Shown: positions 3,388 through 58,845 of the stretch, in pieces | Layout: each line of letters begins with the position of its first letter | Position numbering within the stretch: the stretch's first letter is position 1 | Virus genome (UHGV): UHGV-1366603 | Length of the DNA stretch: 64,000 nucleotides | Direction: 5' to 3' (one strand) | Source: a virus | Position numbers and translations under genes: made by a program | The notes under the pieces: model-generated | What the model was told of the DNA's origin: nothing | The model's database searches: none | The model's input: only the letters and a program-made list of their open reading frames with translations

Positions 3388-3419
3388 AAAAATATCTGAG
3401 AAAGATATTATCTATGTGA
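3388..3419 (+). promoter_or_regulatory. promoter-like motif, copy 1 of a tandem 31-nt repeat upstream of 3542
   Basis: aaaatatctgagaaagatattatctatgtga; near-duplicate at 3469..3499; contains the recurring AGATATTATC core. Confidence 0.45.
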
Positions 3420-3468
3420 TGGTTCGGTGGTTAACTATTTTGAGTTATGTGTGTTCTAGACGCATTCT

Positions 3469-3499
3469 AAAATATCTCAGGTATATGTTATCTACGTGA
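3469..3499 (+). promoter_or_regulatory. promoter-like motif, copy 2, about 45 nt upstream of the 3542 start
   Basis: aaaatatctcaggtatatgttatctacgtga; same architecture as 3388..3419. Confidence 0.5.
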
Positions 3500-3541
3500 A
3501 CCAACACTACAATTGTATTAAACCTTTAAAGGATAAATAAA

Positions 3542-5380
3542 ATGGCTAAAGAGTTTAACGAAATTCCTAACAACGTAAATGCTGGCGCTGCTGGTGTAGA
3601 CCCGGCTCCGTCTTTTGGTGGTGTAGGTGCTGGTGCAGGCAGTGTGGATAACACCCACGCAGCAAATGCTTTCGGTGGTATGACTAAGAACATCTCCACT
3701 TTCGATAAAGCGTTCGGCTATATGTCCTACGTTTCTGCCGCTTCACATTTCACCGCGCTGATTGCGAAGATGGTTGAACGTAACCCGTACCTGAGCAAAT
3801 TCCGCTGCGGCGTTATCGACGGTGTGAATCCAGAAATGGGTTCTGCGGCATACGTTGCTGCGCCAGCAGATGAAAATGGCAGCCACTGGATGTATGGTAT
3901 CTTGTTCTTCGAACACGGTCAGTCTGTACGCTTCCGTGAAATCAACGGTAAAGAAACTTATTACACCCTGGCTTCTCTGTTTGGTCAGGCTGGTGTAATG
4001 GATTCTATCACCAAACAAATCTGCGAACAGCAGAACCTGCCGTCTGTGCAATTCATGGTAATGAACTGCATTCCAGATCTGGGTAAAACGCTGACTGAAG
4101 AGTGGGCTATCCAGCTGATGGGTCAGCTGACTCTGGGTATCTTTGGCCGTATTCCGGGCTACCTGGGTCAGCTGAAACTGACTCGCGGCGATCGCTTCGT
4201 TGCACAGGTAACTGCGGTAGACGAAGGTTCTCTGACTGACGTTAACGGCTCTGCACAACGTGCTGACCTGATGGTTCAGGTTGAACACACTCAGACCGGT
4301 AGCTTCGATACTAACCCGACGCTGATGTCCTCTGAACGTGTTCAGGGTTATCCGAGCGTTGCGGGTGTGGGTTACATCAACCTGCGTTATACTGGTCGCC
4401 GTGCACCTGAAAACGGTGTACAGGATTACAAACAGCTGCAAGCAGAAGTTGTTGTTTCTCTGATGGACTCTCAGTCTTCCGGGGCTATGGTACCAATCGA
4501 ACGTCAGCTGATTGAACTGGCTGCCTTCGCAGAAATCGCCGCTATCGGTGGCTGGCGTGAACGCTTCATGCACTCTCTCAACAAAACCGATCGTCGTTTC
4601 TCCCGCGTTATGGAATACGTAGAGTGGGGTGACAAACGTCCTGATCTGAGCAAAATCGATGGCAACCGCGAAGCTATCGAAGAGTGCCTGAACATGTTCG
4701 CCTACCCAGAAGCTGCGCTGGTTGTGAACCATCGTGCTGGTAACGGTATCGGTGGTCTCTCCACGATGTTCAGTGAAGTTTCCCAGGGTAACACTGGTAC
4801 ACTGTCTAACATCCTGACCATCCTGGACAACATGGCTCCGAAAGGTGCTACGGTGTTCACGCAGCGTTTCGCTGAAATGCTGAAAGTTAATACCATCACC
4901 TGCAACCACGTTGTTATCGCTGGCGTACCGACAGTTTCCGGTCAGTATTTCAGCAACAGCCAGAAACGTAGCTTCCAGGATCAGGACCTGGTGTCTGTAC
5001 TGAGCAAAGTTGGTGATAACCAACACGATGCCTACACTTACCTGTACGCGCAATCTTACTCACACCGTCAGTTCAACGCGACTGAACAGCGTTTGTACCT
5101 GCTGAAGCTGGCCGCTTCCCTGTTCGGCAGCAAACAGCCGGTCGTAACTGGCGAGTCCACCGATTTGGCAATCAACCCGAAATTCGCCAAAGCGCTGCTG
5201 GACTACGTGCGTGATAACTGCATCTTCCAAGTGAATGGTGTCACCGCAGTCAATAGCCTGGCTAATACGTTGTTCTTCAACAACGGCGGTGAAAACTTCA
5301 CTCTGTCTGGTAACGGCCCGAATTCCTTCGGCAGTGACTACAACATGTCATTCGCTTCCGGTAACTACAGCCCTATCTGA
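3542..5380 (+). CDS. abundant early protein; candidate chimallin (phage-nucleus shell protein) homolog, 612 aa
   Basis: Strong RBS (aaggataaataaaATG); codon usage heavily skewed to CTG/CGT/GGT/ACC; sits immediately upstream of the beta' N-terminal gene, as the shell gene does in phiKZ (gp54 then gp55, from memory); strong terminator downstream. Assignment is by synteny and size only. Confidence 0.55.
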   Translation: MAKEFNEIPNNVNAGAAGVDPAPSFGGVGAGAGSVDNTHAANAFGGMTKNISTFDKAFGYMSYVSAASHFTALIAKMVERNPYLSKFRCGVIDGVNPEMGSAAYVAAPADENGSHWMYGILFFEHGQSVRFREINGKETYYTLASLFGQAGVMDSITKQICEQQNLPSVQFMVMNCIPDLGKTLTEEWAIQLMGQLTLGIFGRIPGYLGQLKLTRGDRFVAQVTAVDEGSLTDVNGSAQRADLMVQVEHTQTGSFDTNPTLMSSERVQGYPSVAGVGYINLRYTGRRAPENGVQDYKQLQAEVVVSLMDSQSSGAMVPIERQLIELAAFAEIAAIGGWRERFMHSLNKTDRRFSRVMEYVEWGDKRPDLSKIDGNREAIEECLNMFAYPEAALVVNHRAGNGIGGLSTMFSEVSQGNTGTLSNILTILDNMAPKGATVFTQRFAEMLKVNTITCNHVVIAGVPTVSGQYFSNSQKRSFQDQDLVSVLSKVGDNQHDAYTYLYAQSYSHRQFNATEQRLYLLKLAASLFGSKQPVVTGESTDLAINPKFAKALLDYVRDNCIFQVNGVTAVNSLANTLFFNNGGENFTLSGNGPNSFGSDYNMSFASGNYSPI

Positions 5381-5412
5381 TAGATGTAGTAGTGCGTAAT
5401 TGGTAGTAATTA

Positions 5413-5454
5413 GGGACAGGGGAAAACCCCCTGTCCCTTCCCTCTCTTTTTTTG
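5413..5454 (+). terminator. intrinsic terminator
   Basis: gggacagggg-aaaa-cccctgtccc stem-loop followed by a T7 run. Confidence 0.85.
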
Positions 5455-5467
5455 TTGAGGATTTGGC

Positions 5468-6835
5468 GTGAAAGACAGATTACAATACTTCGGTGTATCA
5501 GGGCGATTAATCAGTCACGATAAAATGTTACGTGACGCTTTCAAAGAGGCGGAGGAAAAGGGCTATAAACCGCCGATGATTATCAATGATGTTGCGAAAT
5601 ATAAAGACACCATTGAGACGTCAGAGTTGATTAACCGAATCTTACAGAACCGGATAGTCGACGAGACGCTAAATTCGGCACCTATTTGTAGTATTGATTG
5701 TGAAGCACCTATCGTTCATCGATATAATCTCGGAATGCGATGTCCTACCTGCGGCTATGTGGTGACAGAACATCGTATTGTTTCAGAAGTCTGGATTCGT
5801 GCCCCGGAGGAAATAGGCAACTTTATTAACCCACGATTCTGGTCGATGTTTAACGCTTTCTTCGGTTCTAAACTTAAGAAGTTTAACCGAAACAAAGTGA
5901 CCGTAGAACGTGGTTCTGATTTATTGATGTGGATGTTAGATCCGTGTTATAAACCTGATAAAGACGAAGGTACTCGATCCCGAATAATCAAACGCATCTT
6001 TAGCGAGTATCAAGTTCCACGCGGTATTAGGAATTTTATTGACCACCATCGAACAATATTCAATATCTTAACTTCTCCTGAAGTCTGGAAAGAAATTTAT
6101 CCACCAACGAAAAATAACCGATATGAGAGCGAACGTACTCGCTTAGAGTGGAAAAAGTTCTTCGAAGAACAATCGCACACTTTCTTTCCGGTTCATCTTC
6201 CAATCATTTCACCCAAACTGATCGTTACGGAGGAACGACGTCAGGGTATCTTTATCGATCCTGTTTATACCAGTGCAATAGACGCGGTTAAGAACATCGC
6301 GTTACTTTATACCAATGCACGACGCATCCCAACCCATTTCATTATTAGTCGCGCATTAAAAGCAAATCGTCAGTTAGCGTACTTCTATATTGACCATCGT
6401 CAGGAGGTAATGGAAGGTAAACCTGGGTTCTATCGTGCCAAGTTAGGTTCAACACACATCCCGTGGGGTGGTCGTGTAACAATCTCTCCAATTTCAGAAC
6501 CGCACGACGCTATGAAGGTTATTGCACCTTGGCGTTGGTTAGTGACGTTAGAATCTGTAGCTATTGAAAACAAACTCGGTCGACGGAACTTCACACCACG
6601 GCAGTGTGAACGTGTTATTGCATTTGCATCAATGCAGTACGTACCGTTGGTTCATGAAATTATCAACGAACTTATTAAGGAGTCTCGTGGCGGTTACGGC
6701 CTGATGATATCAGCGCTACGAAACCCGACGCTTGTACAGTTGTCTATTCAGACATTATTTATCTCAGCTGTTAACCCTGATGTTACACAGTGCTCGTTAC
6801 GTATCTCCGATCGCGTCATCAAAGCTCCGAATGCT
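5468..6835 (+). CDS. multisubunit RNA polymerase beta' subunit, N-terminal fragment, exon 1
   Basis: GTG start with GAGGA RBS. Zn-finger-like CxxC...CPTC; GFYRAKLG..WGGRVTISP matches beta' [38 protein letters not shown] matches NRAPTLHRLGIQAF; exon ends ...RVIKAPNA (last nt T at 6835). The track ORF runs on to 6967 only because the intron is in frame until a stop. Confidence 0.85.
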
Positions 6836-7185
6836 AAAATTTGGCCCACTAGACGGGAAACCTCTAGTGCGTATCCCCCGAATTGCTGGGAACTCCTAAA
6901 GCTTACGATCCCGACAGGGTGGCGAAAGCCAGAAACAATTCGTAAGATAGCCTATGCTAACCAATAATGCTAAGGGTTGTGATAATGGATAACCAGCAGC
7001 GATGAAAATCGTTCAACGACTATCGAAAGGGTAAAACCGAGTAGAGTAGCTGCTTAGTTTAGCGGCGAAGTGGGGGAGACCTACGGGTAGCAATACCTAC
7101 GGTTATGATATAGTCTGTGCCCATGTGAAAACATGGGAGGGTGTCATTGCACACCTGCTCCAAAAGGAATGGAGTGGACAAACAG
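6836..7185 (+). ncRNA. group I self-splicing intron, 350 nt, no ORF, interrupting the beta' gene inside NADFDGD
   Basis: 5' exon ends in U (6835) and the intron ends in G (7185). P-like aattgctgg (6881..6889), Q-like ccagcagc (6993..7000), R-like gttcaacgactat (7011..7023) and S-like gatatagtctg (7107..7117) with GACUA/UAGUC P7 pairing. Flanking hairpins cactaga/tctagtg (6847..6869) and cccatg/catggg (7120..7137). Splicing restores NA|DFDGDQ. Confidence 0.75.
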
Positions 7186-7425
7186 GATTTCGATGGTGAC
7201 CAATTACAGGTTAGACGTTTAGTCGATACCACGGAGATGGATTTAGCGCTGGCTTATCGTCCAGATAACGGATTTATGTCCAGCACAAACGTAGACGAAG
7301 TGTCTAGCAGCATGGTGTTACACAATGAGCTTATCAGCATGGAAAACCGTTTCTTACGCGATACCGAAGAAGATCTGGAGGCGGGTATCGCCATCGACTC
7401 AGAATTAATCTTAATGGCGGGGTAG
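7186..7425 (+). CDS. multisubunit RNA polymerase beta' subunit, N-terminal fragment, exon 2 (begins DFDGDQLQV...)
   Basis: In frame with track ORF 7141..7425; DFDGDQ...RPDNGFMSS matches E. coli beta' DFDGDQMAVH...SPANGEPII. The GTG at 7141 is taken to be inside the intron, not a real start. Confidence 0.85.
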   Translation, partial: DFDGDQLQVRRLVDTTEMDLALAYRPDNGFMSSTNVDEVSSSMVLHNELISMENRFLRDTEEDLEAGIAIDSELILMAG

Positions 7426-7431: not shown

Positions 7432-8019
7432 ATGGGCATGTGGAATCTAGGCGGGTCTATTTGGCAGCGTCAAGACGAAAATAGCGGTATGTATCGTTAT
7501 TTCAAAGAGAACTTTAACCTGTCTAGTTTCGCACCGGATATGGTTGAGCGCGTGAAGCAGAAGTGTAATGAACTGATCTCATTGCAACGTTTCCGCGAAA
7601 TGTACGCAGCTGCGCGTAAGGTTCAAAATAGCGATGCAACGAATGTAGTAAGACAACTTGAAACTATCGGACAATTCCAGTTTGCGAATGAGGCGCTACA
7701 GCCGTTCTTAATTGCAATGCCGGAATACCGACAACTCTACAACAATAACATGGCGACGGGTTTTGAGAACGGTTACTCTAAGGTAGACCGATTCCGAGGC
7801 TCGGCGTACATGCACACTGACGATAACTATCGTGAAGTTACGTCAGGTATGTCAACGGAGTACGACGAGGATCGTATCTGGAACTGGGTATCCAACGAAG
7901 ATCGTTCCAATCGACTTACTCGCGTTCAGCAAGTTGACATGCAGATTAACTGGGCACGTATGCGAAGTTTTGACTGGGAAGATGAAGATCCTTGTTCAGA
8001 ACTTGGTGCGTCCTGCTAA
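7432..8019 (+). CDS. hypothetical protein
   Basis: ORF directly after beta' exon 2; terminator follows. Confidence 0.75.
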   Translation: MGMWNLGGSIWQRQDENSGMYRYFKENFNLSSFAPDMVERVKQKCNELISLQRFREMYAAARKVQNSDATNVVRQLETIGQFQFANEALQPFLIAMPEYRQLYNNNMATGFENGYSKVDRFRGSAYMHTDDNYREVTSGMSTEYDEDRIWNWVSNEDRSNRLTRVQQVDMQINWARMRSFDWEDEDPCSELGASC

Positions 8020-8022
8020 AGT

Positions 8023-8049
8023 GAGGGGCTTCGGCCCCTTATTTTTTCT
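8023..8049 (+). terminator. intrinsic terminator
   Basis: gaggggc-ttcg-gcccct hairpin followed by TTATTTTTT. Confidence 0.85.
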
Positions 8050-17123: not shown

Positions 17124-19364
17124 ATGAAAACACCAGTTGAGCTATTGAGCAGCGTCGCTGACCGTGAAGTCAATATCGCACAGGTATCAGGTGCAAGGGC
17201 ATCGATGGTAGGTAACCATATGAAGTCCTCGGTGCCGATTGACCATCCTGAACCGTCACCACACTTTACGGGCGCAGATACCAATTACCACGATTTTCTG
17301 TTTAACGATATTGTGGAAGACAGTGGGAGCATCTGTCATTACACAACTAAGGAAGGTAGACAACGTCGTGCAACGTTTACCCGTTATGGTCGTCGTGGGG
17401 ATTCCCGTGCGCTGGAACATGCGATATTCTTCCGCCGTGCAGAATGCCGTATTCCGGGCAAAACAATGATAGACGTTATCGAGATTAACTTTTATACTAA
17501 TCACGATAACGTGTTCTCTTCCGAGAAATGGGAATCACCAAAACTGCGTAGTTTGTTACGTGGTGAAACCGACCAGTTAGAAAAGGATGAAATCCTGACG
17601 ACGATGCCGTGCATGGTGGATGGTGAATTCGCAGACAGTGTAGTGCTGCCAACAGTTACCATTTCACACCCAGACATTATCGAGGATTCCTACACGATTT
17701 CCGAAGAAGCGGCACAGAAGCTTCACGGGTATGGGTTGAAGGTTATCGAGAAAACATTGCGTGAAGATGAATTCTTACTGGATACCTACGGTTATAACGA
17801 TCCCGAGGGAAATCGTGTACCGCGCTATTTTCCAGACGTGGGTGAAGCAATTCGTGACGACGGCTTAGTTATTGCTTCTCGTCGTTTCGATGACCTGTAC
17901 GCAGCGATTGATGCAACCTTAGGGGAAACCCAACACGTTTCTCCGTTCTTCGATAACTGTGATTACGTGGATGCCGATCCGATACACTATAAAGCGCGTT
18001 TGGAAAACAACCACGAACTGATGGAACGTAGCGGAACTCGCATTGTTGATATTCAGGTTTGGCGTGATGAAACGTCATGCGGTAATGGAACGAATAACAT
18101 TAACTGTACTGAAGAGAACAAACGTGAGCTTGACAAATACGCATTGGCGTTAAAGGACTACTACAATGCGATTGTTCGCTTCTATTTCTCCGTGTCGAGA
18201 GATAAAAACATTATCTGGTCTCCCAAAGCGTGTGTGTTGTTGGAGAAAGCTTTTGCATCCGAAACGTACGAAGTCTACGCAGAGTTTCGTGAAGAAATTC
18301 GCGGAGTGATTGAAGACGCAATTCGTCGCGGCGAATACGGTAAAGAGAACGTAAGTCAACAGATTATCTCTAAACTGACTTCGCCTGTTCAGCGTGGATT
18401 AAGCGATCCCATCAATACGTATACAATTCGTATCGCGGTACGTTATCCGATCCCGGTGACGGTGTCTTCTAAGATTACCGACCGTTCGGGTACGAAAGGG
18501 ATTGTGGGTCGTGTACTGCCAGTTGAACAGATGCCAATTAACGAGTTCGGCGAACGTGTCCACGTACTACGTTCAATGAACGCCGTAATTCGTCGTTCTA
18601 CTTACGCCGCGCTGTTCCACATGTATTGGTCAGCAGCATCTGAACAGCTGAAGATGCGCCTTAAACCAATGCTGGATGAAGGACGTATTGGTGAGTGTTG
18701 GGAAATCCTGATGGACTACCTCTCACGCTATAATCCAGAATGGGCGAACACGTTACAGGCTACGCATCCTACGGAGGATTTGCAGCGAGAACTCTTTAAA
18801 GAGATTTACGATTTCACTATCCGCATTTACTTACCTCACGAACTTGATGACACTCCGGTGGAAATCAGTGAACGTTTAGGTGAGTTTAAACCCCGTAAGT
18901 CTAAACTGCTTATTACCAATTACGACGGTAAACAGGAATGGACAAAAGACGAGTTTTACGTGGGTGGTGTAGAAACATTACGGCTTGATAAAACGGGACG
19001 TGAATTCTCAAGTATTTCGTCGATGTACCTGAACTACCTGGGCACGATTGATGCGTCTAACCAAGGACGTGGTTCGTATCCGGTAAACTATAAAACGCTA
19101 AAATGGGCTGGTCCTTCGGAAGAACGACTATTAGCGGGTTATGGTCCAGGTAACTACGAAGAGGTTCACGATAGGGCAAATAACCCTGCTGTACATCGTG
19201 AGATTTTAGTAGGGCTGTACCGATCTCAAACCCCTTCCAATCCGGGCGTACTGGTAGACCGGAATAAGCTCCCATTAGGAGATTCGCAGATTGACAGAAT
19301 GATGAAAAACATTCATAGCTGCGAAGGGTTTGAATTGGTGAAAATGAAAAGGGGCGAAGAATAA
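17124..19364 (+). CDS. multisubunit RNA polymerase beta subunit, C-terminal portion
   Basis: TDRSGTKGIVGRVLPVEQMPINEFGERVHVLRSMNAVIRRSTY aligns with E. coli beta [49 protein letters not shown]; aaaggag RBS. Confidence 0.7.
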   Translation: MKTPVELLSSVADREVNIAQVSGARASMVGNHMKSSVPIDHPEPSPHFTGADTNYHDFLFNDIVEDSGSICHYTTKEGRQRRATFTRYGRRGDSRALEHAIFFRRAECRIPGKTMIDVIEINFYTNHDNVFSSEKWESPKLRSLLRGETDQLEKDEILTTMPCMVDGEFADSVVLPTVTISHPDIIEDSYTISEEAAQKLHGYGLKVIEKTLREDEFLLDTYGYNDPEGNRVPRYFPDVGEAIRDDGLVIASRRFDDLYAAIDATLGETQHVSPFFDNCDYVDADPIHYKARLENNHELMERSGTRIVDIQVWRDETSCGNGTNNINCTEENKRELDKYALALKDYYNAIVRFYFSVSRDKNIIWSPKACVLLEKAFASETYEVYAEFREEIRGVIEDAIRRGEYGKENVSQQIISKLTSPVQRGLSDPINTYTIRIAVRYPIPVTVSSKITDRSGTKGIVGRVLPVEQMPINEFGERVHVLRSMNAVIRRSTYAALFHMYWSAASEQLKMRLKPMLDEGRIGECWEILMDYLSRYNPEWANTLQATHPTEDLQRELFKEIYDFTIRIYLPHELDDTPVEISERLGEFKPRKSKLLITNYDGKQEWTKDEFYVGGVETLRLDKTGREFSSISSMYLNYLGTIDASNQGRGSYPVNYKTLKWAGPSEERLLAGYGPGNYEEVHDRANNPAVHREILVGLYRSQTPSNPGVLVDRNKLPLGDSQIDRMMKNIHSCEGFELVKMKRGEE

Positions 19365-21463
19365 TGAAGGCGACTCCGGTTCACGTAAGAGACTTGTGCA
19401 AGTTGAATTCGGATCAGGTGTGGCTACTTCGGGGCGTTTACGACGTGTCCTTCGACGATGGGGTCACGTTGAGAATGTCCGGTCGACACATTAAGTTGAG
19501 CTGGCCGTATTGGGGATTAACCCAGTTTTATCCCCAGGTGCCAATCTCGTCGAACATGGCGTATAAGCATGGCGACACGGCAACTGACGATGCGCATCTG
19601 CGCTTTATGTCGTTGGCGGCTGTAGCAGCACGTAAGGCCGGAGTGGATCTGGCCGATACCCGTTACCTGTTATCGCAGCACGTTTATGCAAACGCGTTTA
19701 ACCTGACGGTGAAAAACCTGTTGTCGTATTGTGTTACCATTGACTACGATACGATGATGGAGATTTATCAGCATGAAAACTTCAAGCTAATTATTGAGTG
19801 GTCTAAACACTATCCGACGGGTTACGATGAAGAGGGTAACGATAAGGTAGAAGAAGCCTATCAACTCATTGAGAAAATCTTTAAAGATCCGAGACTCTCA
19901 AACAACCCAGTTGTCATGTCTGTGTTAGACCGCACACTGAAAATGGATCAGATTCTCCAGGCTTACATTCGTGGTAAGACTTCAGAGATTGACTCCCGTG
20001 TGTATTCTAACCAGGTATGGGAAGGTTTCTTCACCGGCCTGCATTCTGTTATCAGTCGACTGAAAGAAGCAGGTGCGACATCGCGTTCTCACCTGTATAA
20101 CACCGACAAGATTGCAGACGCAGAGTACGCATCGCGTAAGTTGCAGTTAGCGGCTAACGTGCTGATGTTCTTCGATTACGAAGACTGTGGTACACATCAC
20201 GTACACAGACACACCTTTACGAATTCGCCGTTGGAAGAAGCGAAATTCAAAGCGATGAAGGGAATGCGTTATCGCTTCGAAGGTACTGGTGGTCCGTGGT
20301 TACGATTCGAAGATGGTGAGTTTGAGAAAGTCTTGAACAAACCTATCGAGTTCCGTACCGCGATGTGTTGCAAAGGGATGTCACGACAGACTATCTGTGC
20401 AACGTGTATGGGTGACTTGATTTATAACCTGTCACCTGGCACGTCACCGGGTCACCTTGCGTCAACCGCAATTTCGGAAAAGGGTACTCAAGGTATTCTG
20501 TCGACGAAACACCTTGACTTCCTGCGTTATCTGCTGAACTTGGTTTTGTCACCAAGAATGCGTGATTATCTCACGGAGTATAAACACAACTCCGTTAAAG
20601 GGATTAGTTTACTGGAGAAGCCGCAATACGGTACTTGGGATGAATACCAACTGGTAATTTCGGATGAAGTCTATTCAGAGATTAGCCAGATTGCGTACCA
20701 TGAAGACCTGGACGATATTGATGAAACGGCACTCCCGGAAATTAATGACCTTACGTTTGTTCGTTTAGATGCAGAAGGGAATATCCTGGCAGAAGATCCG
20801 ATCGACGTTCGAATGGGCGTCTGCGGTAACTTCTCTAAGTCATTCCTTCGCTTCTTCTTGAAGAATCGTGATAAACTCGTATTTCCCAGCAAGAAAACGG
20901 TGCGTGTTCCGCTAAAAGGATGGAAACCGTCCTGGCCGATCCTAATTTATACGAATCGGTCTGAATCTATGGCGGAGTTTGTAGCAGGGTTGGAATTGAT
21001 TTTACGTTCGGTAGCATCGGACAAGTCAGATAACTTCGAACAGTTCTCGGACGAGTCAATGCGTTTGAGCAAGAAGAGTGGTAAGGTTAAACCGATTACC
21101 CTCGTTCAGATGCGTGGTGCCACGGAGAAACAATGTACTCATGCGTTGTTCTACGTGTTCAAATATATCCAACGTAAACTCAAAGGGATTCCGATGACGC
21201 ACATCGCGATTATGTTGGCAATCTCTCGTGTTGAGTCACCTACTAACCCATTCCCGGCAGTAGGGTTTGACAGTGAGGATGCTGATGCCGCAGAAGGAAA
21301 ACGCTTCGAAGATCACAATACGCTGATTGCGATGCGTTCTGCGATTCCGATGTTGCTGTTTGAGGGACAACAGAAGAACTTGGACAACGTGCGTTTCTAT
21401 ACGTCACGTAAACGTCCTGCTTCGTTGTACGACAATTCTGTCGCGGCAACGATTATTGAGTAA
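19364..21463 (+). CDS. probable RNA polymerase beta' subunit, C-terminal portion (bridge-helix-like segment)
   Basis: TAATG overlap with the beta gene; GHLASTAISEKGTQGILSTKHLD resembles the beta' bridge helix [21 protein letters not shown]. Similarity is modest. Confidence 0.5.
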   Translation: MKATPVHVRDLCKLNSDQVWLLRGVYDVSFDDGVTLRMSGRHIKLSWPYWGLTQFYPQVPISSNMAYKHGDTATDDAHLRFMSLAAVAARKAGVDLADTRYLLSQHVYANAFNLTVKNLLSYCVTIDYDTMMEIYQHENFKLIIEWSKHYPTGYDEEGNDKVEEAYQLIEKIFKDPRLSNNPVVMSVLDRTLKMDQILQAYIRGKTSEIDSRVYSNQVWEGFFTGLHSVISRLKEAGATSRSHLYNTDKIADAEYASRKLQLAANVLMFFDYEDCGTHHVHRHTFTNSPLEEAKFKAMKGMRYRFEGTGGPWLRFEDGEFEKVLNKPIEFRTAMCCKGMSRQTICATCMGDLIYNLSPGTSPGHLASTAISEKGTQGILSTKHLDFLRYLLNLVLSPRMRDYLTEYKHNSVKGISLLEKPQYGTWDEYQLVISDEVYSEISQIAYHEDLDDIDETALPEINDLTFVRLDAEGNILAEDPIDVRMGVCGNFSKSFLRFFLKNRDKLVFPSKKTVRVPLKGWKPSWPILIYTNRSESMAEFVAGLELILRSVASDKSDNFEQFSDESMRLSKKSGKVKPITLVQMRGATEKQCTHALFYVFKYIQRKLKGIPMTHIAIMLAISRVESPTNPFPAVGFDSEDADAAEGKRFEDHNTLIAMRSAIPMLLFEGQQKNLDNVRFYTSRKRPASLYDNSVAATIIE

Positions 21464-21466
21464 ACG

Positions 21467-21492
21467 AGAGGGGCCTGCGCCCCTCTTTTTTT
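21467..21492 (+). terminator. intrinsic terminator
   Basis: agaggggc-ctgc-gcccctct hairpin followed by a T7 run. Confidence 0.85.
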
Positions 21493-29242: not shown

Positions 29243-29249
29243 TAAGCAT

Positions 29250-29290
29250 TACCCTACTCCCGAGAGGAGTAGGGTAGCTTTTATTTTTTC
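29250..29290. terminator. bidirectional intrinsic terminator between convergent genes (repeat copy 1)
   Basis: taccctactcc-cgaga-ggagtagggta hairpin followed by ttttatttttt; near-identical copy at 34616..34657. Confidence 0.8.
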
Positions 29291-31072: not shown

Positions 31073-31143
31073 GTTTTCACTCTCAAATCTAGCGGCTGCT
31101 ATACTGATTTGTGGGTAATGTAATTTCTCAAAAGGAAACACAA

Positions 31144-32478: not shown

Positions 32479-32492
32479 GTAAAGGTAAAACC

Positions 32493-34606: not shown

Positions 34607-34657
34607 AAAAAGAAGTACCCTACTCCTTTTCGGGAGTAGGGTAGCTTTTTATTTTTC
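34604..34657. terminator. bidirectional intrinsic terminator between convergent genes (repeat copy 2)
   Basis: A7 tract, then taccctactcc-ttttcg-ggagtagggta hairpin, then tttttatttttc. Confidence 0.8.
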
Positions 34658-44260: not shown

Positions 44261-44307
44261 GGAGAACCACCCTGTAATGGGGTGGTTCTCCCTTTTCTTT
44301 TTTTTTT
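44261..44307 (+). terminator. intrinsic terminator
   Basis: ggagaaccaccc-tgtaat-ggggtggttctcc hairpin followed by a T-rich run. Confidence 0.85.
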
Positions 44308-44322
44308 CGCATTAAAAATAAT

Positions 44323-44339
44323 CTCAGATAGATATTACC
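44323..44339 (+). promoter_or_regulatory. promoter-like motif CTCAGATAGATATTACC
   Basis: Recurring motif about 60 nt upstream of the 44399 start. Confidence 0.5.
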
Positions 44340-44398
44340 TTAGTGAGATTACGCTGTAATCATTTAACGACCTGTTTATTACGTTTAGGAGAATTATC

Positions 44399-45040
44399 AT
44401 GACACGTTACAATTTAGCCGACTTCTGCGATTGTGCCTTTTCTGTTGAAGGTGACAAACTTGTAATGGCTGCGCCAAACGCAAGAGTTTTATCGTTGTAT
44501 CAAGCCGAAGTTATTGCAATTTCGATTTGGTTGGCAAGGGCTATAGACGGCGGCTGTAAGGACCTTGATAAAGAAGTGTTGAAAGTCGGTCGTCGTGAAT
44601 TTGTGTATAAAGCAGAAATCCAGAACCGTTTACCAAAGACCTTTTTAAGCAGCTTGCTTAAAGATGTCAACACCCCAGTTGTCAGCCGAACATTTGACGG
44701 GGTGAAATATTACTCTTTTGAAGATTCGCACGTTGCTATCTGTGAAGGTGAGAATAAGTTTTTTACGACCGTTATCTACTTTCGTATTGCTGAACCTACG
44801 AAAGAAGAACTGGTTTGCAATACTGCGAACGATGTGGCCGTGATGCGTATGGACGATATCACCAGTGAACTATCTGGATTAAATGACATACCGCGTATTG
44901 TGGAGCGAGTCTTGGAAGGAGACGATTACTTTAAGTTGCTTCCGCTGGTAGCAAGCGAAGAAACAGAACAGGAAAGCGCTTTCATTCAGGTTAACCTTAC
45001 CGCTGCACAGGCGGTGGATCGTTTCTTCGAAGCTTTATAA
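44399..45040 (+). CDS. hypothetical protein
   Basis: taggagaa RBS; terminator downstream. Confidence 0.8.
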   Translation: MTRYNLADFCDCAFSVEGDKLVMAAPNARVLSLYQAEVIAISIWLARAIDGGCKDLDKEVLKVGRREFVYKAEIQNRLPKTFLSSLLKDVNTPVVSRTFDGVKYYSFEDSHVAICEGENKFFTTVIYFRIAEPTKEELVCNTANDVAVMRMDDITSELSGLNDIPRIVERVLEGDDYFKLLPLVASEETEQESAFIQVNLTAAQAVDRFFEAL

Positions 45041-52457: not shown

Positions 52458-52576
52458 ACTCGTAAACGCGTCTTAGACGTTGTTTTACACCTTAAGACGA
52501 TTAATGGTGTTTAAAAAATAAAAGGTCGTCAGAATGCGATACAGCGCGTTTTAGAGGGTGTTTTAATTAAAATATT

Positions 52577-52592
52577 TTCAGATATATATTAC
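52577..52592 (+). promoter_or_regulatory. promoter-like motif TTCAGATATATATTAC
   Basis: Contains TATATTAC, which I recall as the phiKZ early-promoter core; about 58 nt upstream of the small gene at 52650. Confidence 0.5.
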
Positions 52593-52649
52593 TTAGGTGA
52601 GAGAATTACGTAATACTCATTTATCGAATACCTAATTAGGAGCTATATC

Positions 52650-52793
52650 ATGATTTCTGTAAAACACAAAAAAGCTATCTTCGCTGTTGTTATCGCTGTT
52701 GTTCTGGGTTGCCTGTACCTGGATATCGACAAAGGCTACGACACTTGCATCGACAACGGTAACTCCGTTGCGCAGTGCACTGGTCGTGGTTAA
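52650..52793 (+). CDS. small hydrophobic protein, 47 aa (not in ORF track, below its length cutoff)
   Basis: TAGGAG RBS; MISVKHKKAIFAVVIAVVLGCLYLDIDKGYDTCIDNGNSVAQCTGRG; host-optimal codons; own promoter-like motif and terminator. Confidence 0.6.
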   Translation: MISVKHKKAIFAVVIAVVLGCLYLDIDKGYDTCIDNGNSVAQCTGRG

Positions 52794-52800: not shown

Positions 52801-52828
52801 GGCACCTTCGGGTGCCCTTAATTTTTTA
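52801..52828 (+). terminator. intrinsic terminator
   Basis: ggcacc-ttcg-ggtgcc hairpin followed by a T6 run. Confidence 0.85.
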
Positions 52829-52847: not shown

Positions 52848-53663
52848 ATGAAAACTATCAAAGACTATTTTCCGACCGGCATCAGTAGCGACCATTTCGT
52901 ACCAGCGGATTCGATGGAAATCATCAGTAAGTCCAGTAGCGGTGAGTTTGTTATTTACCTAACTAATGTAGGAGGTAGACCGAGTTTCATTCTCCTCGAG
53001 CCTAAAGAAGTAAGTGTCTGTACGGTTGCTGTAAATGTTTCTTGCAGCCTTAGCTGGTTGAAGTCCAGATTGCTACGCTTGCTCGTGGTTAATACTGACC
53101 CAGTAGTACGCTTAGAGCGATTAAAAGCAATGAATGAAGTTATCCTGGGTTTTCTGCTACATCCTATTTACGGTAACCCTAAAGTCGCAGAAGCAATACA
53201 AAACGTACAGTTGGTGGAGTGGAGTGATATTGACTACGAGCGTGCCTCCGAATTTGTATTACAGGCAGACGACAACACCGGTGTGTTCTCACGAACGTTA
53301 GATAATGTAACGGTAACTGCACGTGTGTTGTTTGGTTTACAGCGCGTAGAGTTTGAATTGAAACACGTCTACGTGAGCAATAAACCGGAGATGGTGGAAA
53401 CGTTGATTCGTGCGTTCGCATACCCGTTAGATGGTGAATGGGAACAGCAGATTAATGATGCGTTAGGAGCCATGCATTTCCTGGCTGAAACGTTAAGGAA
53501 GGATGAGAAATTGAAAGGTCGTGTTTATCCAGAACACGATTTTGTTTGTGAAGAATGTGGAGCACAGTATCAAATCCGTGTTCCTTTAACCGGCCTAACA
53601 TTCCCGCAAGCCAACGTGCAATGTAAGGAATGTGGCCATGTTCAATACGTAGCGATTAAATAA
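52848..53663 (+). CDS. hypothetical protein with C-terminal zinc-ribbon-like CxxC...CxxC
   Basis: ttggag RBS; CEECGAQYQ...CKECGHVQY near the C-terminus. Confidence 0.8.
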   Translation: MKTIKDYFPTGISSDHFVPADSMEIISKSSSGEFVIYLTNVGGRPSFILLEPKEVSVCTVAVNVSCSLSWLKSRLLRLLVVNTDPVVRLERLKAMNEVILGFLLHPIYGNPKVAEAIQNVQLVEWSDIDYERASEFVLQADDNTGVFSRTLDNVTVTARVLFGLQRVEFELKHVYVSNKPEMVETLIRAFAYPLDGEWEQQINDALGAMHFLAETLRKDEKLKGRVYPEHDFVCEECGAQYQIRVPLTGLTFPQANVQCKECGHVQYVAIK

Positions 53664-53669
53664 AAGCAA

Positions 53670-53712
53670 CCCCTAATCCCGAAAAGGATTAGGGGTACAC
53701 TTTATTTATTTT
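53670..53712 (+). terminator. intrinsic terminator
   Basis: 10-bp stem cccctaatcc/ggattagggg followed by a T-rich run. Confidence 0.85.
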
Positions 53713-53737
53713 CGCTCTTAAAAAAGGAAATTGTGTC

Positions 53738-53893
53738 ATGAAGAATGTTAATGCAATGCTTAACCAGTCATTTGTTAACCAACAGCGTTTTCAGGAACGC
53801 TTAGCACAACTTAAAACACAACACAGACCGCCACAACAAAGAGTGGTTAAGAGCAAGTTTGGCGAAATGGTTTTCGAAAGAAAATCTTTCTAA
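53738..53893 (+). CDS. hypothetical small protein, 51 aa
   Basis: aaaaaggaaa RBS; ORF MKNVNAMLNQSF...; its own terminator follows. Confidence 0.5.
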   Translation: MKNVNAMLNQSFVNQQRFQERLAQLKTQHRPPQQRVVKSKFGEMVFERKSF

Positions 53894-53902
53894 TAACCGT
53901 TA

Positions 53903-53929
53903 AGGGGGTGTGACAGCACCCCCTTTTTT
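53903..53929 (+). terminator. intrinsic terminator
   Basis: gggggtg-tgacag-caccccc hairpin followed by a T6 run. Confidence 0.8.
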
Positions 53930-54052
53930 ACGCTTTAACTTTTCCAAAGAGAAGTTAAAGCAAGGTACGCTGCCACAACAGCGTACCTTTTACAACACCA
54001 TTACGTTTCCGTAATGGATTTCTTTAATCACCCTACAAAGAGGGCTTATACC

Positions 54053-54226
54053 ATGAACAATGGTTACTACTTTACTGACAAAATGCTTGCAGAACAGTAT
54101 GCAGCAAAAACCAATTTACAGCAACGTATCTACGAGTATAGTCAACTCGGCGTGAATAAACGATTAAAACCATCCACCAACCGTTTCACACAGATAATCA
54201 CTGAAAAAAGGAGCGAACGCTACTAA
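54053..54226 (+). CDS. hypothetical small protein, 57 aa
   Basis: Track ORF 54014..54226; ATG 54053 with gaggg RBS preferred. Confidence 0.5.
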   Translation: MNNGYYFTDKMLAEQYAAKTNLQQRIYEYSQLGVNKRLKPSTNRFTQIITEKRSERY

Positions 54227-54361: not shown

Positions 54362-55924
54362 TCAAAAGAGTTCGTCTCCCATACCGCCTGTAAAGACGTT
54401 AATCGACGATGCAGTTACTGTTTCTTCTTTATCGCAATCCCAAGGCAGAATGCCAACTTCACGGAAAGGTATTACTGTATAATGGTAAGCTTCTTTAGTA
54501 TCGATAATTGTACGGTGTTTACCACGTTGTACTTCTAAGTAACTATGTCCATTGACAACACGTTTGTTAAAATACATCTCACCGTCAGCTTCGTTATCCA
54601 AGCTGGAGCAGTTATCGTAAAGACCGCGACCTGGTAAGTTCTTGCAGAAACTTGCTGGGTCTAACGCTTTTAATTTTTTGCCTTCTGGTGAGATTTGGTG
54701 TGGTGCTAACAAGAAACCACGGTTACGTACTACCTGGATGTTTCGAGCGATACGATAAATTTCTTTAATGTCGCTACCGGCAATCCCGTTACCGTGACCT
54801 GCTTTACTGATAGTCCCGAAATAGTCTCCGCGAATCCCAGCTACATGATAACCTCGACGCTTTAAGTCCAGTATTAAGTCGTTTAAGTAGTGTATTTTAA
54901 AATCTGAGTTTGTGTGTTTCTGAAAGATGTATTCCCAACCGTTAGCCCGCATTTTACTACAGAGGTAGTCCGACATTTTTGTGTTGTGCAAAGCTTTCTC
55001 TTCGTCGGTAGCGTTTTCAGAAGCAACCATAACCGGTGCTTCACCTTCAAAATGACCGTAGAGCGCTTGGTACGCATACGCCAAGTTAACGTCCAGTTCG
55101 TTCTCTAAACTTAAATCGAGAATAACCGGCTGCAAATCCCCTTTAACGTTTTCCATTACTTTTTCAGGTGTATTGAATACCGGAATACTGATAGACAATA
55201 ACAGACTAAAAAGTGATTTACAGTTAAAAGGCAGTGCAGGCATTAGCCAAAGTTCTTCGGTAATCCCTTTGTTACAACCCAGCATCTGGTTAATGGCTTT
55301 CCATCCGGTACGTAAACCGTTACCCGCCGCTTTCTTACTGATGGAGTCGAACACGTGTACGAACGGTGCACGGTTATCCGTAATAAGTTCGCCTACAAGT
55401 GAGGGAATCTTATTATGAGAGCGTTCACTGAACGTAGAGAGACTATCTCTGAGGTCGTTGAGCGCCGTTTGTAAATCAACGCGCGTTTCGGTTCCGTTCA
55501 GTGCGCCTAACGTACGACCTAATTTTTGTTTCAGTTGTACGCCTTGAATAGCTTGACGTAATTGGAAGTAGTATTGTGCTACTTGACGGTTAAGATGCTC
55601 GATGCGTGCTTCTGGTTCTTCTGGAATATCATCTTCCAGGAATTTGGTAATCGTATCGTATAGAGGACGTATTTGCGTAGTGGCCAATTTCAAACGTTTC
55701 ATGACGTTTGTGTGGTCGTAAGGCATACCGCCGTCTATGATGGATGTGATGATATCCTTGATTTCGACGAGGGCGGCACGTTCGTCACCTTCCTCTACGT
55801 AATCAGGAAGCTTAGCCTCTAACAGCACTTTTCTTATGACCTCATGATCCTTCTCAGGGTCGGTCAACAGACTTTCAGTGTATAGTGTGGCTAATGCGGT
55901 TATCAACATCATTTTGTTATTCAT
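54362..55924 (-). CDS. hypothetical protein, 520 aa
   Basis: Minus-strand ORF with AAGGA RBS and a hydrophobic N-terminus (MNNKMMLITALATLY). Confidence 0.8.
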   Translation of the reverse strand: MNNKMMLITALATLYTESLLTDPEKDHEVIRKVLLEAKLPDYVEEGDERAALVEIKDIITSIIDGGMPYDHTNVMKRLKLATTQIRPLYDTITKFLEDDIPEEPEARIEHLNRQVAQYYFQLRQAIQGVQLKQKLGRTLGALNGTETRVDLQTALNDLRDSLSTFSERSHNKIPSLVGELITDNRAPFVHVFDSISKKAAGNGLRTGWKAINQMLGCNKGITEELWLMPALPFNCKSLFSLLLSISIPVFNTPEKVMENVKGDLQPVILDLSLENELDVNLAYAYQALYGHFEGEAPVMVASENATDEEKALHNTKMSDYLCSKMRANGWEYIFQKHTNSDFKIHYLNDLILDLKRRGYHVAGIRGDYFGTISKAGHGNGIAGSDIKEIYRIARNIQVVRNRGFLLAPHQISPEGKKLKALDPASFCKNLPGRGLYDNCSSLDNEADGEMYFNKRVVNGHSYLEVQRGKHRTIIDTKEAYHYTVIPFREVGILPWDCDKEETVTASSINVFTGGMGDELF

Positions 55925-55937
55925 GGAGCATCCTTAA

Positions 55938-56462
55938 ATGCAAATTCGTTTTAGTCCACCGTGGGAAGTTCAGCCTAACATAGATAAAGGCGCTGCCGTT
56001 AAAAGTGTAGAATTGCTCCAGGCAGGGTTCTTTAACTGGTTATATGACTGTCCGAATGGTTTCAGTTCTATCATTATACCTGAAGTAAGTCGTTCTGCTA
56101 TTTATAAAGCGTTGATGGCTCCGCCTGTGCTTCCAGGTAAATATTATGATCAGGTGTTACGTCTGGTCGAATCAGGCGAAAAGGTTTCCCTTGACGATTT
56201 ATATGGGGAAACAATTCCTTGTCGCTTACGCTGGGTCTTTACCCAACGTGGTGATACGATTGTGGCGTCATTTGCAGAAGCGAAGTCCGGTTCGGGTTTT
56301 TCTTCGGGTGAAGACCACGCTGCGAAAAAGATGTTCTGCGCAGAACTTTTTAAATATATGCGTACCAAGACTCGCGTCGTGGATGACTGCTTCAGTACCT
56401 CAACGCAGTTTGCCGCTAACGAAGTGCTGACGCAATTATACGCATGTCATTTATCTCATTAA
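55938..56462 (+). CDS. hypothetical protein
   Basis: GGAG RBS inside the 13-nt divergent spacer. Confidence 0.8.
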   Translation: MQIRFSPPWEVQPNIDKGAAVKSVELLQAGFFNWLYDCPNGFSSIIIPEVSRSAIYKALMAPPVLPGKYYDQVLRLVESGEKVSLDDLYGETIPCRLRWVFTQRGDTIVASFAEAKSGSGFSSGEDHAAKKMFCAELFKYMRTKTRVVDDCFSTSTQFAANEVLTQLYACHLSH

Positions 56463-56474
56463 GGTATTAAACAA

Positions 56475-58760
56475 ATGAAAGATACCCGAATCTCTAATTT
56501 AGAGAAACTCGTAGAAGCCGGTACTAGTCTGGCCCAAAACGTCATCGGCAACAACACCGCCAGCGAAATGTGGAATACGATTGTTGCAGGCGAGTCCGTA
56601 CGCAGCAACGCAAAAGTGTTTGGCGCTCTGCGTGACGAAGCATCACAGCACTATGCCAACGCTTTTGGTGGCAAGAAAATGTCTCATGCTGCGACTGTCG
56701 CCTCCGCAATGATTCTGGGCGCAGCTAACCACGGTAAAGACCTGCAAGAACGTGTTGCCCAGGAATACGCTAAGCCGGAATTCCACACCAAGTATAACCT
56801 GGATATTGGTATCCCTGGTGCGCAAGGTGGTGACTGGGGTCGTGAGCGCATGGTTGTTGCTCAGGAATACTACAGCAACAAAGACTACGACAAAAACCTG
56901 GGCCTGACCTGGACCCTGAACGTACGTGCTCTGGAAACTCAGTCCAAGTTTGCTGAAACACTGTTCCCGACCATTACCGTCGACACCAACGATGTTGGTA
57001 TTACCGTACGTACTAAAGTGACTACCGTTTCTCGCGGTATCATGAACGCGCTGCTGAGCAAAGACGTCGTTGAAGATCATCGTCGTCCGCTGCACAACGC
57101 ACTGACTGACCACACCGTTCTCCAGGACGAAGCGATCAACATCGTTCCTTACGTAATGGAAACCGGTGAAAACCAGGAATACTTCGTAAGCGAAGAACTG
57201 GTTCCGAACGAAACCGTTCGCCTGGGTCGTGTACCTCCGTATCCGACTAACTACCTGAGCTTTGCAAACGACACGCTGAACCTGTTCCAGCTGTCTGCGC
57301 ATCCGGGTATCGTTCAGGAAGGTTACGAAGAAACTGATGAAATCGCACCGGGTTGTGCTCTGGGCAGCCTGCTGATTTCTGTACGTAAACCGGCCGAAGA
57401 AGCGAAAGCGGGTAAATTCATCAAACTGCACGTTCGTGACATGCAGTTCGCAACCTTCCAGCGTCCTGCTGAAGGTGACGGCCGTGAACTGGTTCTGCAA
57501 TTCCGTCGTACCGCGTTCTCTCTGAATGCGAAAACCACTGACTGGAAAGGCGACGCTATTCCGGCTCTGCAAGCACTGGGCCAGAACTCCTACACCCTGC
57601 GCTACGTTATCACCATCACCATGTCCCTGTTCACCAGCGGCCAGTTCGGTGGTAAAGTAGACATTTCCGGCCACAAACTGGAAATCGAAGGTCTGTACGA
57701 TGCAACTGGTAACAAAGTTGATACCAAGTCTGGTACCGGTAAAGTTATCCTGGATGGCCTGAAACTTGAACTGATGGGCTGGCGCTTCGATGGTACTCGT
57801 ACCAACGAAAACCGTCGTACCCAGGGTCTTCTGCTTGACCCAATTTGGGAACAGGAAAACTACAAACTGCAATACGGTTCTCCGATTCTGACCAAGTCTC
57901 CGGTTGGTGTTGAATACGACGACACTGAACGTCTGGACGACCTGATCTCTGCGGTGAACATCCGTAACGAACAGCTGGCTATTACTCAGACGCTGTCTTA
58001 CACCGAAGCAGTACGTAACGCAGCCGCTGCGATGATCACTCCGTGGGACAAACCGGCTATCCGTGGTCTGGGCCGTCACTGGGTTGCTCCGTGGTTCAAA
58101 GAGTCTGACTACAAAGTCGATGAAGTTGTTCAGTCTCTGGATACCAAAGAAGCGCTGATCAACGCTCGTCAGGGTCTGTTGCAGCGTATCGGTAGCCAGG
58201 TAACTCAGGCTATCCAGGATTCTCGTTTCATTCCTGCACTGCGCCTGCTGACCGCTGATCCGGACATTCTGCCGAAAGTTATTATCGCAACTGACGAACC
58301 GACTGCATCTATGCTGCTGCTGGTTCAGGGCGACCAACGTCTGCTGGGCGACCGTTATGAATACGAAGTCGTTACCACCAACGATGACCGCTGGCGCATC
58401 TACAACGCAGCTGACGATTCCTGGACTCGTCGTCTGCAATGGTTCCTGAAAGTTCCGACTGCGGACGATGGTTCCTACTGCGTACTGAACTGGGGTAACC
58501 ACTTCTGGTCTCCGATCATGGTTACCAACATCAACATCCAGCGTAACGGTTCTACTTCTAAAGAACTGGCTGTACAGCCGCGTAACGCGCATATCTGCCA
58601 CTGCCCGATCACTGGTCTGATTTGGGTTAAAGGCATCACCAAACTGGTTGAAGAAAAACTGGCTTACAACGTTTCTGTAGAACAGAACGGCCAGAAACAA
58701 ACCGACGGTGGTGTAGCAGGTAATGTTGCTGGCGACGGTAAAGACAAAGCTGGTAAATAA
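56475..58760 (+). CDS. abundant virion protein; major capsid protein candidate, 761 aa
   Basis: taaggtattaaacaa RBS; very strong host-optimal codon bias; size close to jumbo-phage major capsid proteins; strongest terminator in the window follows. Product call is inference. Confidence 0.5.
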   Translation: MKDTRISNLEKLVEAGTSLAQNVIGNNTASEMWNTIVAGESVRSNAKVFGALRDEASQHYANAFGGKKMSHAATVASAMILGAANHGKDLQERVAQEYAKPEFHTKYNLDIGIPGAQGGDWGRERMVVAQEYYSNKDYDKNLGLTWTLNVRALETQSKFAETLFPTITVDTNDVGITVRTKVTTVSRGIMNALLSKDVVEDHRRPLHNALTDHTVLQDEAINIVPYVMETGENQEYFVSEELVPNETVRLGRVPPYPTNYLSFANDTLNLFQLSAHPGIVQEGYEETDEIAPGCALGSLLISVRKPAEEAKAGKFIKLHVRDMQFATFQRPAEGDGRELVLQFRRTAFSLNAKTTDWKGDAIPALQALGQNSYTLRYVITITMSLFTSGQFGGKVDISGHKLEIEGLYDATGNKVDTKSGTGKVILDGLKLELMGWRFDGTRTNENRRTQGLLLDPIWEQENYKLQYGSPILTKSPVGVEYDDTERLDDLISAVNIRNEQLAITQTLSYTEAVRNAAAAMITPWDKPAIRGLGRHWVAPWFKESDYKVDEVVQSLDTKEALINARQGLLQRIGSQVTQAIQDSRFIPALRLLTADPDILPKVIIATDEPTASMLLLVQGDQRLLGDRYEYEVVTTNDDRWRIYNAADDSWTRRLQWFLKVPTADDGSYCVLNWGNHFWSPIMVTNINIQRNGSTSKELAVQPRNAHICHCPITGLIWVKGITKLVEEKLAYNVSVEQNGQKQTDGGVAGNVAGDGKDKAGK

Positions 58761-58775
58761 TACCGAATAAAAAGT

Positions 58776-58816
58776 GTCTAAGCCCTTCGGGGCTTAGACC
58801 TTTTATTTTTTTTTTC
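58776..58816 (+). terminator. intrinsic terminator
   Basis: 10-bp stem gtctaagccc/gggcttagac with UUCG loop, followed by a T-rich run. Confidence 0.9.
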
Positions 58817-58830
58817 TTTCTATTATTTTT

Positions 58831-58845
58831 TGGATAGATATTATC
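58831..58845 (+). promoter_or_regulatory. promoter-like motif TGGATAGATATTATC
   Basis: Recurring motif about 36 nt upstream of the uORF at 58881. Confidence 0.5.

Follow-up and report, generated by a model that had tools for sequence, protein, structure and literature searches.

The stretch analysed here, 64,000 nucleotides (nt) of the virus genome UHGV-1366603 (the window), comes from a distant relative of Salmonella phage SPN3US, Proteus phage 7, Escherichia phage Lh1B and Erwinia phages, with ~73% nucleotide identity in the few segments that can be aligned. It is collinear with SPN3US 11.5-77.3 kb at protein identities of 33-84%, and its gene order parallels phiKZ gp50-gp75 (DNA polymerase, gp52, shell protein, gp55, SbcD, gp66-70, gp71-74, helicase). 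An AT-rich motif recurs at eight sites on its + strand, ahead of genes for the phage-nucleus shell protein chimallin, for the subunits of a non-virion RNA polymerase and for small proteins, and we consider here the evidence that these sites are early promoters.

A conserved motif at eight plus-strand sites

The initial annotation had described seven copies of a short promoter-like motif upstream of genes, and all seven are present. The element is longer than was described, with a conserved block of ~34 nt, and an eighth copy at 13285-13318 had been overlooked. The repeated element is AGATAGATATTATC, and the conserved block takes the form T-c-N-AAaaaattTcAGATAgATaTTAtcT-NN-gtGA; alignment of the seven copies gave the consensus cATT..AAAATATCT.AGATAGATATTATCTa.GTGA. 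The core can be written AGATAGATATTATCTNNGTGA, with positions T10, A11 and G19. Copies are labelled below by their core coordinates (3399, 3479, 11887, 13298, 17081, 44326, 52580 and 58832), the motif itself spanning longer.

A search of the window for the core AGATAKATATTA with at most one mismatch returned six matches, all on the + strand, against 0.25 expected, and in 100 dinucleotide-preserving shuffles the count never rose to six. The copy at 3479 (AGGTATATGTTA) has diverged further, with a weight-matrix score of 40 bits. The weight matrix built from the seven copies scored these at 34-43 bits, compared with a shuffle maximum of 16 bits, and the sole other match above that maximum was the eighth copy, at 21 bits. 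A matrix built from SPN3US sites only recovered exactly the eight window sites (19-46 bits), with everything else at or below 8 bits and a null maximum of 17. An alignment of 31 sites revealed a conserved T 13 nt 5' of the core, as well as an A/T tract.

All eight window copies are on the + strand. By our own gene calls the window is 95.2% coding, and seven of the eight copies fall within the 4.76% that is non-coding (binomial probability ~4e-9, hand calculation). The distance from motif end to start codon is 23-53 nt in five copies, 123 nt for 3399, and 92 nt for 58832 when measured to the start of a 336-amino-acid (aa) gene. The spacing of 30 to 60 nt given in the initial annotation thus holds for some copies only, and fits 58832 only if a micro-open reading frame (micro-ORF) is taken as the first gene. 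The copies had also been said usually to follow a terminator. This is true of 44326 and 58832, where strong terminator hairpins end 20-22 nt 5' of the motif, and weakly of 11887, where a hairpin with a poor T tail ends 29 nt before it; at 52580 the nearest terminator is 121 nt upstream, and 3399, 3479 and 17081 lie in divergent intergenic regions without one.

With TATTAT placed at about -12 to -7, the predicted transcription start falls in the GTGA block, at positions 3418, 3498, 11906, 13317, 17100, 44345, 52599 and 58851 for the eight copies in order, each +/-~3 nt. The resulting 5' untranslated regions (UTRs) would be 24-124 nt long, and 282 nt for the single intragenic copy. A good Shine-Dalgarno sequence is found at most start codons downstream of the copies.

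Other candidate repeats were set aside. A loose-pattern match at 56134 was taken as chance, its matrix score being below 8 bits. The other over-represented k-mers of the window, TTATCGACG and ACGGTAAAGA, are scattered within coding regions with no common context, and are therefore regarded as codon-usage effects. Searching IMG/VR with the exact 14-mer AGATAGATATTATC was too unspecific, the matches listed being mostly unrelated contigs.

Genes downstream of the motif

The first two copies form a tandem pair before a 612-aa gene (3542..5380, + strand), the first gene after them. The distal copy, P1, spans 3386..3419 (+ strand, 31-42 bits), and the proximal copy, P2 (3466..3499, + strand), has the variant core AGGTATATGTTATC and a predicted 5' UTR of ~44 nt. 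The encoded protein shares 55% identity with SPN3US RefSeq gp244, a diverged chimallin (Laughlin et al. 2022), and its homologues carry the precomputed Pfam annotation PF25677, Chimallin_Phikzvirus. By sequence alone, no chimallin match was obtained by phmmer against PDB, by local Pfam or by hhalign against PHIKZ054. An AlphaFold model of the protein (predicted template modelling score, pTM, 0.77; residues 1-63 and 571-612 of low confidence, as disordered tails) was compared with known structures using Foldseek, which returned all solved chimallins (Goslar, 201phi2-1 and PhiPA3) with E-values of 5e-21 to 2e-17 and template modelling (TM) scores of 0.6-0.7, the next match having an E-value of 0.013. 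The adjoining genes match phiKZ gp52 and gp55. On this structural prediction, the shell protein that the initial annotation had put forward as a candidate is confirmed as a chimallin.

The following gene (5468..7425, + strand) encodes a gp55-like beta' fragment of the non-virion RNA polymerase (phrog_2987; blastp to PHIKZ055, 3e-38). It comprises exon 1 (5468-6835, + strand), an intron (about 6836-7185) and exon 2 (7186-7425). The intron is ORF-free and belongs to group I (Rfam RF00028, 61 bits, E 5e-13). Exon 1 ends in Asn-Ala and exon 2 starts with Asp-Phe-Asp-Gly-Asp, and splicing would therefore restore the catalytic NADFDGD motif, giving a predicted product of 535 aa compared with 531 aa in SPN3US, where the gene is uninterrupted. 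An intron also interrupts the Lh1B counterpart (at 20090-20411), which is annotated as two 'subunits', and the genes of SPN3US and Erwinia phage Stratton are without one. A terminator with a 12-base-pair (bp) stem and a T run (8018..8045, + strand) probably closes the chimallin/beta' early unit. Between the two genes lies an 11-bp G+C-rich hairpin followed by a T-rich tract (5412-5438; spacer RNA fold -30 kcal/mol, z -3.3). This hairpin is probably an attenuating terminator, which would set a high ratio of shell to polymerase transcript.

The copy at 11874..11907 (+ strand; predicted 5' UTR ~31 nt) precedes the orthologue of PHIKZ068, the fifth non-virion polymerase subunit (11937..13565, + strand; phmmer to PDB 7OGP chain B, 8e-10; blastp to gp68, 2e-9). 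The eighth copy (13285..13318, + strand; 19-21 bits compared with a null maximum of 16-17) is inside this gp68-like ORF, 282 nt before the gene at 13599. The copy at 17068..17101 (+ strand) occupies a divergent intergenic region before the polymerase beta/beta' operon, which consists of a gp71/73-like subunit gene (17124-19364, + strand) and a gp74-like subunit gene (19364-21463, + strand), both of the non-virion polymerase (phrog_3295 and phrog_3015 for the pair; blastp matches to PHIKZ071/073/074). Copy 17081 and the terminator at 21466-21487, which closes the operon, frame these two genes.

The last copy (58819..58852, + strand) lies 20 nt past the terminator of the major capsid gene (58776-58799), and is followed by the micro-ORF, the 336-aa gene (58944-59954) and the orthologue of PHIKZ123, a further non-virion polymerase subunit (59965..61740, + strand; phmmer to PDB 7OGP chain E, 2e-17; phrog_2943). 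All five subunits of the phiKZ non-virion RNA polymerase thus have an orthologue in the window, each 3' of a motif copy; the polymerase fragment named in the initial annotation is borne out by these phrog, blastp and phmmer matches. The micro-ORF (58881-58931) has 16 codons and a strong Shine-Dalgarno sequence, and the ribosome-binding site of the 336-aa gene after it is poor. At the same position SPN3US has an unannotated 27-codon ORF (72541-72624), together with a second promoter copy that is absent from the window.

Two copies precede small genes. The copy at 44313..44346 (+ strand), 22 nt past a terminator (44261-44291), has the core GATATTAC, intermediate between the two motif subclasses described below. 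It stands before a 213-aa ORF (44399-45040), for which no PHROG and, by tblastn, no SPN3US homologue was found, though the promoter is conserved. The copy at 52567..52600 (+ strand) belongs to subclass B, with the core AGATATATATTACTTAGGTGAGA, and stands before a 47-aa ORF (52650-52793). This is the small hydrophobic protein of the initial annotation, and its hydrophobic stretch is indeed present. The 47-aa ORF (MISVKHKKAIFAVVIAVVLGCLYL..., phrog_8574) combines a hydrophobic stretch resembling a signal with a lipobox-like VLGC, and its product may be a small lipoprotein; promoter copy 52580 and a terminator at 52801-52816 delimit it as a single-gene unit. For the genes at 44399-45040 and 52848-54226, downstream of these two conserved copies, tblastn found no homologue in SPN3US, and most are without a PHROG; they occupy the lowest-GC stretches of the window (0.42-0.43). 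In both places the promoter has been kept and the cargo exchanged.

A gene at 27419-28720 encodes a probable fragment of the virion polymerase, with 72% identity to SPN3US RefSeq gp224, which is annotated as RNA polymerase beta subunit (phrog_2962). SPN3US gp224 is reportedly, following Thomas et al. 2016, the virion fragment gp42 in the original numbering. In the matrix scan no motif copy was found directly 5' of this gene or of the capsid gene, which fits the expected bootstrapping logic.

Some further features of the window were noted. Bidirectional terminator hairpins with the same 11-nt stem (TACCCTACTCC / GGAGTAGGGTA) lie between convergent genes at 29249-29277 and 34616-34643, flanking the block 29291-34606. 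A DnaB-like helicase gene (- strand) lies head to head with the + strand gene that comes before the major capsid gene, the two being 13 nt apart (55924-55938, 56462-56475), and their promoters must therefore be inside coding sequence. The matrix scan detected no early motif at this head-to-head region.

Conservation in SPN3US-like phages and resemblance to known early promoters

The whole SPN3US genome (240 kb) was scanned with the window matrix, revealing 23 copies, all on the + strand, of which 21 are intergenic and just 5' of + strand genes. Placement relative to genes is thus not random across this genome, and the motif passes the check that the initial annotation had proposed, in which random placement genome-wide would refute the promoter reading. 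Two minus-strand matches are merely echoes of partly palindromic + strand copies. According to the annotation, the copies lie 45-155 nt before + strand start codons, except for an intragenic copy and one copy followed first by an unannotated small ORF. An unbiased k-mer count gave ATAGATATTAT and AGATATTATCT as the commonest 11-mers of the SPN3US genome.

Every window copy has a counterpart in SPN3US, including those at 44313..44346 (SPN3US 56294), 52567..52600 (65413) and 58819..58852 (72486). The chimallin, gp68-like, beta/beta' and intragenic copies are also present in Lh1B and Erwinia phage Stratton: P1 corresponds to SPN3US 15614, Lh1B 16652 and Stratton 16448, and the 17068..17101 copy to SPN3US 28969, Lh1B 30361 and Stratton 29893. 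Close relatives in IMG/VR and Logan have orthologous copies as well, and metagenomic contigs ~98% identical to the window in these databases contain the same sites and two more upstream. In alignments of orthologous spacers the motif blocks stand out as identity islands, as at P1, with the sequence between them diverged and the upstream terminator hairpin retained through compensatory changes. At 11874..11907, for example, a four-phage alignment shows an invariant core, diverged flanks and an upstream hairpin kept by compensatory substitutions.

The tandem pair before chimallin is conserved in four genomes, and its proximal copy is always the AGG(C/T)A variant. The intragenic copy is found at the same codons in SPN3US (25226), Lh1B (26618) and Stratton (26066). 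In all four phages it encodes Asp-Arg-Tyr/Phe-Tyr as GAT AGA T(A/T)T TAT; AGA makes up 5.8% of Arg codons, and the retention of this rare codon in four phages argues for selection on the DNA sequence. The intragenic copy is thus a candidate internal promoter.

Predicted early-promoter consensuses have been published for Klebsiella phage N1M2 (TBYAWWWWWTTTCARRYAKATATTATYWAAGTGWA) and Pseudomonas phage OBP (BSHAWWWWWTTTYARRYAKATATTATYWWADTG), together with a 201phi2-1 consensus (...TTTRARR_BTATATTACDWHDGTG) and the phiKZ promoter entry TATATTAC (PMC7058600 Table 2). The window motif is in register with the three longer consensuses. Used as a pattern, the OBP consensus AWWWWWTTTYARRYAKATATTATYWWADTG matched four window sites with at most 3 mismatches, where 0 were expected, and a shortened form matched all eight. 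The resemblance to OBP and N1M2 is the closest, with near-identical consensus over ~30 nt (AWWWWWTTTYARRYAKATATTATYWWADTG in OBP and AAAATATCTCAGATAGATATTATCTTAGTG in the window) and, as in the window, placement before early-looking operons that include polymerase subunit genes. However, these phages belong to another genus and infect other hosts, and the promoters on both sides of the comparison are bioinformatic predictions.

For phiKZ, the initial annotation had named TATATTAC as the early-promoter core and had located it inside one copy. It is present in the window at 52585-52592, within the 52567..52600 copy, and the core so named agrees with PMC7058600 Table 2. A 50-kb stretch of phiKZ contains TATATTAC eight times on the + strand and not once on the - strand, including before PHIKZ054 and PHIKZ068. 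The phiKZ early promoters with this core were reportedly described by Ceyssens and colleagues in 2014. When the window matrix was applied to the phiKZ stretch, it found TTTGAGAT(T/C)TATATTAC before PHIKZ054, the shell protein gene, and PHIKZ068, the two genes orthologous to those behind the chimallin and gp68-like copies of the window. Wicke et al. 2021 (PMC8244752) and Putzeys et al. 2024 (PMC10914365) also cover the phiKZ early promoters, and in the former a primary start site carrying the early motif was mapped for PHIKZ054, which has both an early and a middle promoter (PMC8244752). The two phages further share an AT-rich core near -10 preceded by a T/A tract, operon-head position on the main coding strand, and exact TATATTAC in the subclass B sites of the window. 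They differ in that most window copies have GATATTATC instead of TATATTAC, along with a GTGA conserved at the predicted start; in that the window chimallin gene has two tandem early-type copies rather than one early and one middle promoter; and in that a copy lies directly 5' of the beta/beta' operon, while the matrix scan gave no match at the corresponding place in phiKZ.

In 201phi2-1, ONT-cappable-seq placed the motif ~10 bp upstream of mapped starts, with conservation at -10, -20 and -30 (PMC11512511). Its consensus, TTTRARR-BTATATTACDWHDGTG, shares blocks with the window motif, but only six mapped starts bear the motif, all before hypothetical genes, and the beta/beta' genes are on a middle promoter, unlike the window, where the motif directly precedes them (PMC11512511). 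AR9/PBS1 likewise have a phage-specific AT-rich motif near -10 that serves early transcription and is ascribed to a virion polymerase of several subunits, although its sequence is different, the genome contains uracil and no nucleus is formed (PMC5312081).

The motif as a probable early promoter

We consider it highly probable that the eight sites are early promoters, in an SPN3US-like version, of the class shared by every phiKZ-like (Chimalliviridae) jumbo phage, a class of long, AT-rich and phage-specific promoters. This assignment is based on direct observation of the motif and its statistics, placement, conservation at orthologous sites in three other genera, consensus match and downstream gene identity. 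The features of the class are found together: a strongly conserved AT-rich core of ~10 nt of the type (T/G)ATATTA(C/T); upstream conservation at about -20 and -30, as in phiKZ and 201phi2-1; many co-oriented, intergenic copies just 5' of genes (8 in the 64-kb window, 23 in SPN3US); and position ahead of the non-virion polymerase genes and chimallin, with the caveat of the hairpin between chimallin and the gp55-like gene. A review states that a motif of this kind, centred near -10, is to be found in all jumbo phages with polymerase genes of their own, and that in each case where transcripts were profiled it turned out to be the consensus of the early promoters (PMC7598289). The early-promoter reading in the initial annotation is thus supported by comparative and literature evidence, with early timing, use by the virion polymerase and exact start sites predicted by homology.

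By homology with phiKZ, 201phi2-1 and AR9, a multisubunit virion RNA polymerase would be injected with the DNA, and would need neither host polymerase nor new protein synthesis. In phiKZ and AR9 both are dispensable for early transcription, which is therefore assigned to the virion polymerase (PMC7598289). In the window, this enzyme would read the block AGATAgATATTAtC near -10, the A/T tract near -20 and the conserved T near -31/-32, and would initiate inside the conserved GTGA, ~6-9 nt past TATTAT. Chimallin would be made from the early transcripts, as would small accessory proteins and all five subunits of the non-virion polymerase, the second enzyme, to which transcription later passes.

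Several observations weigh against this assignment. The gp55-like gene may not be efficiently served by P1/P2, given the hairpin at 5412-5438, and the intragenic copy is without the GTGA block and scores barely above the null. A single virion-polymerase fragment is encoded in the window, the rest of the enzyme being assumed from SPN3US. Reviews note that not even for phiKZ has a purified virion polymerase been shown to recognise early promoters in vitro, and our literature search yielded neither transcripts nor start sites nor timing for any SPN3US-like phage, this one included. In 201phi2-1 some non-virion polymerase genes are without a nearby early promoter (PMC11512511), and the tidy arrangement of the window is therefore not universal.

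Of the alternatives, we regard it as very improbable that the motif is a middle promoter read by the non-virion polymerase, or mainly an operator for a phage regulator. An operator might be suggested by the partial inverted repeats TATCT-n-AGATA and AGATA-n5-TATCT, but the left arm TATCT occurs in only ~8 of the 31 aligned sites and the right arm is absent from subclass B, so the dyad is not a conserved feature. Palindromic minus-strand echoes of the core, and the two tandem copies before the window chimallin gene set beside the early and middle promoters of PHIKZ054, speak in favour of this alternative. However, the motif heads all five genes of the non-virion polymerase, and that enzyme could therefore not begin its own synthesis from it. 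The phiKZ middle promoters (a weak AT-rich/TACT motif near -22/-24) and late promoters (TATG at the start) also look different.

A reading as ordinary sigma-70 promoters of the host, at which the bacterial polymerase would start right after injection, with TATTAT as the -10 element and the A-tract as an UP element, is very unlikely. TATTAT does agree with TATAAT at five of six positions, the upstream sequence is A/T-rich, and some jumbo phages encoding their own polymerases remain rifampicin-sensitive (PMC7598289). Nevertheless, a sigma-70 scan called none of the eight sites, and no -35 hexamer is conserved at 16-18 nt spacing; by direct reading, the lone TTGAAA, at site 3399, is 15 nt away. 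The continuous conservation over ~34 nt takes in positions that sigma-70 does not read, and in phiKZ, transcription from the motif is insensitive to rifampicin and needs no protein synthesis (PMC7598289). Promoters of the N4 type, in which extruded DNA hairpins are read by a virion polymerase, have a negligible probability here: the polymerase would be carried in the virion as in N4, and sites 3399 and 13298 fold better than shuffled controls, but the predicted stems vary by site with no hairpin common to all eight, the other six fold no better than shuffles (z > -1.3, 0 to -1.7 kcal/mol), and the multisubunit beta/beta' virion polymerase of jumbo phages is unrelated to the single-subunit N4 enzyme.

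Within the early promoters, sequence variation defines two groups of sites. Subclass A (AGATAGATATTATCT-NN-GTGA) is OBP-like and heads chimallin, the non-virion polymerase subunits and neighbouring genes. Subclass B (AGATATATATTAC(C/T)TAGGTGAGA) is phiKZ-like, has a conserved transcribed leader, and heads small accessory genes in lower-GC stretches, which are replaced between phages while the promoter is kept. In SPN3US the diagnostic positions (G/T, T/C) co-vary (15, 6, 1 and 1 sites; Fisher p = 5e-4). A tentative and rather doubtful extension is that SPN3US-like early promoters form two functionally distinct subclasses, A on core genes and B on rapidly replaced accessory genes. If true, the subclasses could differ in strength, in timing or in a co-injected factor assisting the virion polymerase, and, together with the tandem pair and the promoter embedded in the gp68-like gene, they would mean that the early programme is more finely graded than the one 'early' class of present descriptions.

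The motif leaves current understanding unchanged, being expected by reviews for every such jumbo phage, and is useful for annotation: it outlines where early transcription units lie in an uncultivated SPN3US-like jumbo phage, with eight predicted starts that are directly checkable in the cultivable relative SPN3US. The sites would also be short, host-independent promoters, which could be useful for phage engineering. The positions of early promoters at the shell protein and gp68-like genes are conserved from Pseudomonas phage phiKZ to the enterobacterial phages, which supports a bootstrapping circuit shared across the family, in which the virion polymerase transcribes the genes for the shell and for the second polymerase.

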